Sequence record: PQ511150.1 | Direction: 5' to 3' (one strand) | Length of the DNA: 64,000 nt | DNA from: Escherichia phage NHEP29 | Shown here: positions 33,741-35,182 of the stretch, one piece after another | Position numbering within the stretch: the stretch's first letter is position 1 | How the letters are laid out: the number at the start of each line of letters is the position of its first letter | The notes under the pieces: generated by a model | Databases searched by the model: none | Seen by the model: only the letters and a program-made list of their open reading frames with translations | What the model was told of the DNA's origin: nothing | Program-made: the position numbers and the translations under genes

Positions 33741-34160
33741 TTATGCGAAAGCAGCTGGGCTATATTTTTTAATTTGGAATTCAGGAACTACCATGAACTG
33801 ACCAGCGAAAACGATGTTATAAAGCTTAACACCATCTTCTACCCAACGGTCGCTAATAAATCCGGCGATTTGCTTAGTTTTCCACGGCGTTCCATCAGTT
33901 GCCGCAGCAATAGTGAATTCATGGTCTTTTTCAACAGAAACTGATCTGCATAGTCCCCATTTGAACGCTTTTTCTTCTGGTTCAATGAATTGGCTTGAGA
34001 CGTAGCCAATGTTGCCATCAGCATCACGAACTTTAACTTGATGTGGACTAAAGAGTCCACAACTTACAGAAAGAACTTCAACCAACTTCCCAGCAACTTT
34101 AGAGCGAGAAGCAACAGATACATATACGTAATCACTTGTAGAGAGATTTGCAATATTCAT
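33741..34160 (-). CDS. paralog family protein A (139 aa)
   Basis: C-terminal motif GFISDRWVEDGVKLYNIVFAGQF shared with next two ORFs. Confidence 0.55.
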   Translation of the reverse strand: MNIANLSTSDYVYVSVASRSKVAGKLVEVLSVSCGLFSPHQVKVRDADGNIGYVSSQFIEPEEKAFKWGLCRSVSVEKDHEFTIAAATDGTPWKTKQIAGFISDRWVEDGVKLYNIVFAGQFMVVPEFQIKKYSPAAFA

Positions 34161-34169
34161 AATAATTCC

Positions 34170-34625
34170 TTAAGCTTTACGAGGAGACACATAGCGAGTG
34201 ATTTCAGATTCTTTAACAACTCGGAAGTCACCTAAGAATACAATATTGTATAGCTTTTTACCATCTTCAACCCATTGGTCGCTGATGAAGCCGCACATAG
34301 TATCAGTTGTGCTTGGATAGCCGTATTCATCGATGAAGTCAAATTCTTTATCAGTCTGGAATTCAACACCTTTACACAAGGCCCATTTGAACTGTACATT
34401 AGGCTCAGTAGAAGCAAAATGAGCACTCACACGAGTTTCCAGGAATTTAGGACTTACGTAAGCGTACTGAGTATCCTGACGTCCAAAACTAGGAATGATT
34501 CGAACTTTAACTTCTTTAATACGTCCCGTGCCATTTGTGCGAAGTCCGACAACTTCAACCAGACGACCTGCGGCTTTAGACCGGGATGCAGTTGATACAC
34601 GCTTAATTTCACCAATATTAATCAT
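34170..34625 (-). CDS. paralog family protein B (151 aa)
   Basis: Start at ATG 34625 (MINIGEIKRV…); motif GFISDQWVEDGKKLYNIVFLGDF. Confidence 0.55.
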   Translation of the reverse strand: MINIGEIKRVSTASRSKAAGRLVEVVGLRTNGTGRIKEVKVRIIPSFGRQDTQYAYVSPKFLETRVSAHFASTEPNVQFKWALCKGVEFQTDKEFDFIDEYGYPSTTDTMCGFISDQWVEDGKKLYNIVFLGDFRVVKESEITRYVSPRKA

Positions 34626-34655
34626 ATTTTTTCTCTCTTTGTTTAAGTTGAATTC

Positions 34656-34684
34656 ATTATACTCCATCCATCCTTGGATGTACA
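34656..34684 (-). promoter_or_regulatory. early promoter (TGTACA-N17-TATAAT) with palindrome CATCCA-TCCT-TGGATG in spacer
   Basis: Perfect TATAAT on transcribed strand; 16-bp palindrome at 34665-34680. Confidence 0.5.
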
Positions 34685-34687
34685 ACA

Positions 34688-35182
34688 TTAATTTAGAATA
34701 TTAACTACTGCACTACGTGGAACCACACTAAAATCACCGGCATGAACAACGTTCAGAAGTTCAACCCCATCTTCAATCCACTGATCAGTTACCCATCCAT
34801 TTACTGGACCAGCGAACGGGCGTCGAATTGAAACATATTTACACAATAAATCAGTAGGCTCAATAGGCTTAATCAGAGTACCGTACATACAAGCTATATC
34901 CATATCAATACAGATGTCTTTAACTGGTTCTACTTCTTCAATCAACAGTTCAAAGTCGGTGCTCAGAAGGGCGGTAGTAGAAATTGTGCCGTATAAATTT
35001 TTAATTTCTAAGAATAACCAAGGGCCTTCAGTTTGTTTGATGAAGTTAACAATAGTGAAACTATTACCTTGAGTGGCACCTAAAATTTCACAAAACTTTT
35101 CATAAGCTCGCACTGAAGCACCATACCAGTTGATTTGTTTTTCGTCTTTCAGGATGTAAGTAGCCGTAGTATTGATATTCAT
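34688..35182 (-). CDS. paralog family protein C (164 aa); at the T4 motB position
   Basis: Motif GWVTDQWIEDGVELLNVVHAGDF; identity to T4 MotB not established. Confidence 0.55.
   Translation of the reverse strand: MNINTTATYILKDEKQINWYGASVRAYEKFCEILGATQGNSFTIVNFIKQTEGPWLFLEIKNLYGTISTTALLSTDFELLIEEVEPVKDICIDMDIACMYGTLIKPIEPTDLLCKYVSIRRPFAGPVNGWVTDQWIEDGVELLNVVHAGDFSVVPRSAVVNILN

Follow-up and report, generated by a model that had tools for sequence, protein, structure and literature searches.

The closest described relatives of the genes considered here are motB of phage T4 and its homologues. According to Patterson-West et al. (2018), T4 MotB is toxic in E. coli, gives a 2-fold gain in burst, binds DNA, modified or not, in a non-specific manner, and H-NS and StpA co-purify with it (PMC6070864). 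Their 2021 article describes altered H-NS footprints and the up-regulation of 75 host genes, sorts the homologues into four categories that have the C-terminal domain in common and differ in the N-terminal domain (MotB.1 being "Category 2"), and counts in phage RB69 two motB genes, one motB.1 and one peptide of 29 amino acids (aa) (PMC7827196). The locus of the current report is an array of three consecutive open reading frames (ORFs), encoding 164, 151 and 139 aa (ORF164, ORF151 and ORF139), in Escherichia phage NHEP29 (PQ511150.1), of which a stretch of 64,000 nucleotides (nt), referred to below as the window, was analysed. A sequence-only reading of this stretch had described the array as tandem paralogues with divergent N-terminal halves and a related C-terminal motif of ~35 residues, had placed it in the motB/cef area of the T4 map, and had considered host-takeover or anti-defence functions for it.

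The three ORFs have exactly the coordinates given in that reading and all lie on the minus strand (Table 1). The gene order in the window is dda, dexA, ORF164, motB (ORF151), ORF139, ORF174 (a homologue of MotB.2), cef, goF, the 39.2 zinc ribbon, a GoF-like ORF and gene 39, so that the array falls between dexA and the motB.2 homologue and cef, within the segment from dexA to cef in which Tevenvirinae genomes carry members of the MotB family. The placement in the motB/cef region was thus correct, and the assignment to an early region agrees with predicted T4 early-type promoter sites that precede ORF164 and motB in a consensus scan. The records nearest to the window DNA are those of Mosigvirus phages: it is 98% identical to Escherichia phage NHEP10 and 92-96% identical to many JS09/HX01/RB69-like phages, in which the genes in question are named "MotB-like transcriptional regulator" or "transcriptional regulator". 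Against the Pfam family PF17613 ("motB", curated gathering score 25 bits) ORF151, or its 172-aa extension, scores 131.1 bits, ORF139 75 bits and ORF164 35.1 bits; among the PHROG families, the 151-aa and 139-aa proteins belong to phrog_1671 ("MotB-like transcriptional regulator") and the 164-aa protein to phrog_2333. The RB69 locus, annotated as p013 (motB.1), p012 (a 29-aa ORF), p011 (motB), p010 (MotB-like) and p009 (motB.2), is 93.4% identical in DNA to window positions 33000-35300 and has the same gene order, including motB.2 and cef downstream. The order differs in T4 (dexA - motB.2 - motB.1 - motB - cef) and in phage ime09 (motB.2 - motB.1-like - motB - motB-like). We conclude that the array very probably represents the early cluster motB.1 - motB - motB-like of an RB69-like T4-type phage (Mosigvirus). 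A comparison with T4 MotB had been proposed for these proteins, which falls short of their identity: by their PF17613 scores they are themselves MotB, a second MotB copy and MotB.1. This family relationship is already known from GenBank annotation and from published analysis, and a specialist in T4 would find no surprise in it; the value of the locus lies in a few corrections and leads, which are taken up below.

Table 1. Positions of the genes, promoter-like sites and sequence elements discussed in the text (numbered along the window, except for the hybrid genes, which are numbered within the loci named)
Feature	Position	Strand	Basis or remark
motB.1-type gene (ORF164), 164 aa	34688-35182	minus	ORF list
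motB orthologue (ORF151), 151 aa	34170-34625	minus	open frame extends to 34688 (172 aa)
second motB copy (ORF139, RB69ORF010c type), 139 aa	33741-34160	minus	ORF list; RB69p010 annotation
linker motif DMDIACMYGTLIKP in ORF164	34871-34906	minus	residues ~93-104; AF2 confidence <50
early-type sigma-70 promoter-like site before ORF164	35214-35242	minus	TTTACA-17 nt-TATAAT, 11/12
early-type promoter-like site before motB, within the 172-aa frame	34656-34684	minus	TGTACA-17-TATAAT, 10/12
ORF174, T4 MotB.2 homologue, 174 aa, not a family member	33157-33681	minus	T4 MotB.2 alignment; phrog_1106; RB69p009 = motB.2
ORF174 promoter-like site	33735-33708	minus	TTTACT-16-TATTAT with TG; consensus scan
hybrid genes (P0147, P0149)	L008 1373-1894; L009 3001-3492; L010 2199-2690		MotB N-terminal domain + linker, fused at FKWKL

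The three proteins are related to each other to different extents. In BLASTP comparisons ORF139 is 45% identical to the 151/172-aa protein over 137 columns (E 9e-31), essentially its whole length, whereas ORF164 matches ORF139 and ORF151 only in its C-terminal part, with 55% identity over 29 residues (E 1e-10) and 44% identity over 36 residues (E 4e-10), respectively. A profile-profile alignment of the two subfamilies with hhalign gave a probability of 98.9% and an E value of 1.2e-17 over 55 columns. The prospect that this is chance or low-complexity similarity among three unrelated ORFs is practically negligible: nothing speaks for it save the shortness of the pairwise stretches between ORF164 and the other two, and it is opposed by the alignment statistics just given, by Pfam scores that lie above the gathering score for all three proteins, and by an exhaustive search with the profile of the C-terminal domain, which, out of 1.84 billion cluster representatives, retrieved no more than 35 proteins at E <= 0.001, some two-thirds of which have the same small two-domain design. 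Tandem paralogy with related C-termini, which was to be given up if the motif similarity proved insignificant in formal alignment, is accordingly upheld. Its motif, G[FW][IV][ST]D.W[VI]EDG..L[YL]N[IV]V..G[DQ]F, has three matches in a six-frame regular-expression scan of the 64-kb window, one in each ORF; no fourth copy, such as the RB69 "29-aa peptide", was found in the six-frame translation of the same sequence.

Two parts of the sequence-only reading need amendment. Divergence of the N-terminal halves is true of ORF164 alone, since the 139-aa and 151-aa proteins are homologous at full length and have the pattern VSxASRSKxAGxLVEV...VKVR...YVSxxF in common at their N-termini. The motif of ~35 residues also understates the shared region, which is a whole domain of ~57-73 aa (residues 108-164 of ORF164, 79-151 of MotB and 66-139 of ORF139). 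A conserved strand, L-C-[KR]-x-V, opens this domain, which carries in the MotB-type proteins an insertion of ~17-20 aa between strands 1 and 2, and bears the invariant motif D-x-W-x-E-(D)-G ... L-x-N-x-V ... G on strands 2-4 of the predicted barrel.

AlphaFold2 (AF2) models of MotB and ORF164 predict five strands for the C-terminal domain, with a short helical turn, the only one of the domain in both models, between strands 4 and 5. A helical turn at this place is typical of SH3-like barrels; the helix of an OB-fold lies between strands 3 and 4. Patterson-West et al. (2021) predicted by HHpred an OB-fold for the C-terminal domain of MotB and a KOW-like N-terminal domain (PMC7827196). We do not favor the OB-fold, for which the predicted helix is in the wrong position and of which no representative, such as a cold-shock protein or the C-terminal domain of eIF5A, was recognised among the Foldseek matches listed. 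In Foldseek, MotB aligned over its full length with structures of the tandem Tudor, SAWADEE, Agenet and KOW6-KOW7 types, at a probability of ~1.0 and an E value of only ~2e-3; these runs were made on whole-protein models, and their matches are not assignable to single domains. In our reading of the models, MotB would be a tandem of two SH3-like barrels, with a C-terminal domain of the SH3/Tudor type, which modifies the published assignment. The likeness to 53BP1 tandem Tudor, Spt5 KOW6-KOW7 and SHH1 SAWADEE is one of fold and not of membership: the sequence identity to MotB is 12-19%, without detectable sequence homology, the template-modelling scores are 0.26-0.31 because a flexible linker joins the domains, and a methyl-lysine reading is without support. 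A search of PDB sequences with the full-length and C-terminal-domain profiles returned nothing significant and thus no relative with a solved structure. All three proteins would then be small two-domain beta-barrel proteins in which one common five-stranded SH3/Tudor-like C-terminal module is joined to different N-terminal domains, namely a basic KOW-like domain in MotB, a domain of the same fold without net positive charge in the 139-aa copy, and an acidic LSm-like domain in MotB.1.

The middle gene is the motB orthologue. Its product matches the Pfam profile end to end (positions 2-157 of 162) and phrog_1671 with E 3.7e-64, is 93% identical to RB69 MotB and 47% identical to a T4-type MotB cluster (P0239), and has the two-domain plan of the MotB family: a basic KOW/SH3-like N-terminal domain (residues 1-62) with the pattern SRSKxAG...VKVR, a disordered linker (62-85) and the conserved C-terminal barrel (79-151; nt 34173-34391). 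The AF2 model, built from a 38-sequence alignment, has a mean predicted local distance difference test (pLDDT) score of 84, N-terminal strands within residues 7-57, and a five-stranded domain at residues 86-146 with pLDDT >90. The N-terminal domain has an isoelectric point (pI) of 11 and a net charge of +8. With T4 MotB this protein has in common the position between dexA and cef, the basic KOW-like N-terminal domain, the flexible linker, a C-terminal domain ending in Ala and an early-type promoter-like site upstream of the gene; its linker is shorter than that of T4 and of many Tequatrovirus/Dhakavirus forms, which have an insert of 20-30 aa. The reading frame is open for 172 codons, and this longer reading was rejected. 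The 151-aa start is preferred because it matches the N-terminus of T4 MotB (MIINIGE...) and that of RB69 MotB (P0162, 151 aa), and because the 21 additional codons, without counterpart in T4 or RB69 MotB, overlie the promoter-like site and a repeated 57-nt cassette that includes the 5' untranslated region (5'-UTR). On read-through transcripts, translation from the TAATG overlap, giving the 172-aa form, is possible.

ORF139 is a full-length paralogue (phrog_1671 E 3.8e-49) that differs from T4 MotB in having lost the linker, in a shortened loop of the N-terminal domain and in lacking the positive charge of that domain. Its N-terminal domain is KOW-like and carries no net positive charge (pI 5.65); the C-terminal barrel (nt 33744-33965) follows with almost no linker. 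The gene starts 9 nt after motB, with its own ribosome-binding site (AAGGA), and lacks a separate promoter.

ORF164 corresponds to T4 MotB.1; the alignment of the two proteins runs through the N-terminal domain into the C-terminal domain, and the ORF164 gene aligns at the DNA level with the motB.1 region of RB69; the T4 MotB.2 counterpart is, by alignment, ORF174 and not ORF164. ORF164 matches phrog_2333 over the whole protein (E 8e-82) and the Pfam motB profile in its C-terminal part only (residues 84-159; profile positions 78-153). It carries the marks of the MotB.1 subgroup, which are the signature DPTDLLC...GWVTDQWIEDGVELLNVVH, an N-terminal domain that is not KOW, and a gene adjoining motB upstream. 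A putative LSm-like N-terminal domain (residues ~1-82), a linker (86-107) and the MotB.1-type barrel (108-164; nt 34691-34861) make up a protein that is acidic throughout (pI 4.5, net -9). In its AF2 model (36 sequences, pLDDT 78), strands and one helix occupy residues 1-82 and further strands residues 116-163, and the linker falls below a pLDDT of 50. Kim et al. (2025) grouped the N-terminal domain of MotB.1 with GoF and Frd.2 by predicted LSm-like fold, a bent antiparallel beta-sheet of five strands and ~80-90 residues (PMC12152347); in our hhalign comparisons, the ORF164 family had a weak match to the GoF-like ORF141 (E 7e-5, probability 62%) and no relation to GoF itself (ORF142).

The linker of ORF164 includes a segment, DMDIACMYGTLIKP, which MotB.1 of the T4 type (143 aa) lacks. 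Its pattern, D-x-D-[IV]-A-[SC]-M-Y-G-T-L-I-K-P, occurs in 89 of the ~120 proteins whose C-terminal domain is of the MotB.1 type, in some at the N-terminus and in others between the domains. It is absent from all MotB-type proteins examined, has no further copy in the window, and is not mentioned in the accessible text of Patterson-West 2021 or Kim 2025 (PMC7827196, PMC12152347). The motif may serve as a docking peptide.

The intact motB.1 gene of the window, a single ORF of 164 aa, differs from those of the T4 (NC_000866) and RB69 (NC_004928) reference genomes, which are both frameshifted. In the T4 reference (AF158101; nt 4143-4660 of locus L002) one extra G (ATTGGAAGATGG) ends the protein at 119 aa in the middle of the C-terminal barrel, the remainder of which (EDGVELLNVVHAGEYSVVPRSAVVAILN) continues in another frame. 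Resequenced T4 lacks this extra base. Thirteen other T4/T4T records, together with RB55 and RB59, match this stretch over 517 nt instead of 518 nt; in the T4 record MT984581 (L004) MotB.1 is annotated with 143 aa, and 256 contigs carry the intact form (P0011). Exact-pattern scans of IMG/VR for the frameshifted and the intact T4 versions returned no matches for either. In the RB69 record (locus L005, 4877-5373), two single-base insertions split the gene into parts of 132 and 29 aa, so that RB69p012, the "29-aa Category 3 peptide", is the C-terminal tail of the frameshifted motB.1. The published size of MotB.1 is 13.8 kDa (PMC12152347), and work on a 119-aa T4 "MotB.1" may have used a protein that lacks over half of the conserved barrel (strands 3-5).

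The 151-aa protein most likely has, by analogy, a function like that of T4 MotB, and the host-takeover role proposed for the array agrees with the published data on T4 MotB (DNA binding, H-NS remodelling, toxicity and the 2-fold gain in burst). By orthology it would be an abundant early protein that coats DNA non-specifically and reshapes H-NS/StpA-DNA complexes, with de-repression of H-NS-silenced host loci and a modestly larger burst as the expected outcome. A strongly basic N-terminal domain is peculiar to MotB among the three proteins, and the C-terminal domains range from acidic to near neutral (pI 4.8-8.1). Because of this difference in charge, DNA binding most plausibly resides mainly in the N-terminal domain of MotB, and MotB itself might be the only strong DNA binder of the array. 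The C-terminal barrel could act as a common module for partner binding or self-association that brings the three N-terminal "heads" to one target; its invariant D, W, E, G and N residues suggest a conserved surface for such contacts.

Several considerations weigh against this account of the locus and its function. The identity between the window MotB and T4-type MotB is only ~47%. The work on T4 found no DNA-independent contact between MotB and H-NS, which leaves the partner-binding role of the C-terminal domain as a proposal of ours, and the OB-fold that this work assigns to the domain might itself bind DNA (PMC7827196). T4 motB.1 deletion and amber mutants were described as without phenotype under laboratory conditions, and wild-type MotB.1 had little effect in an mCherry RNA reporter assay (PMC12152347). 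The promoters, finally, are consensus matches only, 14 such sites having been found where shuffled sequences lead one to expect 12.2.

The reporter result also bears on a different proposal, in which the KOW (NusG/Spt5-like) and LSm-like (Hfq-like) domains would serve in RNA metabolism or transcription elongation by binding RNA polymerase, Rho, S10 or mRNA. Such a role would suit the old designation "modifier of transcription"; a short distance downstream, the window has goF and another GoF-like gene; and the LSm-like group into which the N-terminal domain of MotB.1 falls includes GoF, whose D25Y form stabilises gene 41 mRNA and overcomes rho alleles (PMC12152347). We nevertheless regard it as quite unlikely, given that knock-down of T4 motB was reported to leave early, middle and late T4 RNA without significant change (PMC7827196) and that T4 MotB is a tight binder of double-stranded DNA and changes the footprints of H-NS (PMC6070864, PMC7827196), in addition to the small effect of MotB.1 on the RNA reporter. 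The idea that the array is a diversifying anti-defence locus, whose paralogues each neutralise a different host immune or nucleoid protein (H-NS, StpA, plasmid-borne H-NS homologues) on a C-terminal scaffold, is very unlikely in our estimation. The early region in question is hyperplastic, with a gene content that varies among close relatives; N-terminal domains are freely swapped on a constant C-terminal domain; and H-NS is regarded as a xenogeneic silencer against phages (PMC7827196). Each paralogue type is, however, strongly conserved (ORF139 82-98%, ORF164 91-96%), which is unlike the rapid diversification of an arms race, and T4 motB and motB.1 mutants are described as plating normally on laboratory strains (PMC12152347, PMC7827196). 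None of the family members is known to counteract a defence system. No defence-related model was matched either, as a search of PADLOC-DB with the three proteins and ORF174 returned 0 families at E <= 0.1 from a library of defence, and not anti-defence, proteins; we found no evidence for this part of the sequence-only reading.

A more specific version of the MotB-like function would make of the shared barrel a phage Tudor or "Royal-family"-like "address" domain, within a combinatorial system that docks basic KOW, neutral KOW and acidic LSm-like heads on one nucleoid target. We consider it unlikely. The D-x-W-x-E-D-G and N residues would, from the sequence pattern, lie on one face of strands 2-3, the docking partner might be, for example, an H-NS/StpA-DNA filament or a second copy of the barrel, and the mobile DxDIA[SC]MY linker motif of the MotB.1 branch could provide one more short peptide for docking.

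Homologues of the three proteins, numbering 220 for ORF164, 32 for ORF139 and 106 for MotB, all carry PF17613. Those that are named come from T4-like phages or from "bacterial" assemblies, and the latter have been ascribed to phage contamination (PMC7827196). The C-terminal domain is found with several N-terminal architectures in proteins of 143-252 aa, and several distant relatives have at their N-terminus the canonical KOW motif GKxVKVISGKHxGxxGxVIG; the KOW assignment is therefore supported. Long repeat proteins (601-862 aa, with 4-7 short matching stretches) were judged spurious, the two that were inspected (P0272 and P0274) consisting of unrelated repeat units and the others having the same multi-stretch pattern.

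In our reading the cluster arose by tandem duplication and domain shuffling, and recombination, at short repeats and between the paralogues, continues to remodel it. A direct repeat of 57 nt (34626-34682 and 35184-35240, 77% identical) spans the promoter and 5'-UTR before both motB and ORF164. Phage NHEP36 is without ORF164, and the deletion junction lies inside this repeat; phage F2 is without ORF174, with a junction in a 32-nt repeat (33097-33128 and 33679-33710) that includes, for both ORF174 and cef, the ribosome-binding site and the start codon. These are instances of genes lost or gained through cassettes in the manner of PeSL (promoter-early stem-loop) elements, and the pattern in the window matches the modular shuffling at regulatory cassettes that is described for T4-type phages (PMC2839356, PMC4122927). 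The likeness to the PeSL cassettes of the same two articles lies in short repeated promoter/5'-UTR cassettes that flank genes, and one cassette of the window, that before ORF174, pairs a promoter-like site with a stable stem-loop. The two promoter repeats of the motB cluster differ in having no convincing terminator stem-loop, and their likeness to PeSL is one of description. Exchange between paralogues is represented by hybrid genes (P0147, P0149 and P0151) in metagenomic contigs, where a MotB N-terminal domain joined to an ORF139-type C-terminal domain replaces both motB copies. Such hybrids are consistent with unequal recombination between tandem paralogues; P0149 occurs in five contigs, and for hybrids known from a single contig an assembly artefact is possible. 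A 43-aa protein from the search of representatives (P0271) combines the first 13 residues of MotB.2 with the last 29 of the MotB.1 C-terminal domain, and is another deletion product of this hyperplastic region.

The two repeated early-type sigma-70 promoter/5'-UTR cassettes would drive motB.1 and motB, and ORF139 would be co-transcribed with motB. At ORF174, a 13-bp hairpin on the minus strand (33686-33730; -19.4 kcal/mol, z -3.8) holds the GAGGAG ribosome-binding site of the gene in its paired stem, and the -10 element of the promoter-like site lies in the hairpin loop. From this arrangement, the ribosome-binding site would be masked on read-through transcripts and free on transcripts from the local promoter.

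The neighboring genes offer a few further observations. The cef gene, listed at 32872-33144 with 90 aa, has a T4_Cef Pfam match that starts at residue 16, a GAGGAG before an ATG at 33099, and a 75-aa counterpart in RB69; its start is probably this ATG, giving a protein of 75 aa. Beyond it are two GoF-like genes of phrog_622, at 31852-32277 (141 aa) and 32462-32890. The first of them is the ORF141 whose profile weakly resembles that of the ORF164 N-terminal domain. The LSm-like N-terminal module would thus recur at least twice more within this 3.5-kb stretch, with other C-terminal domains.

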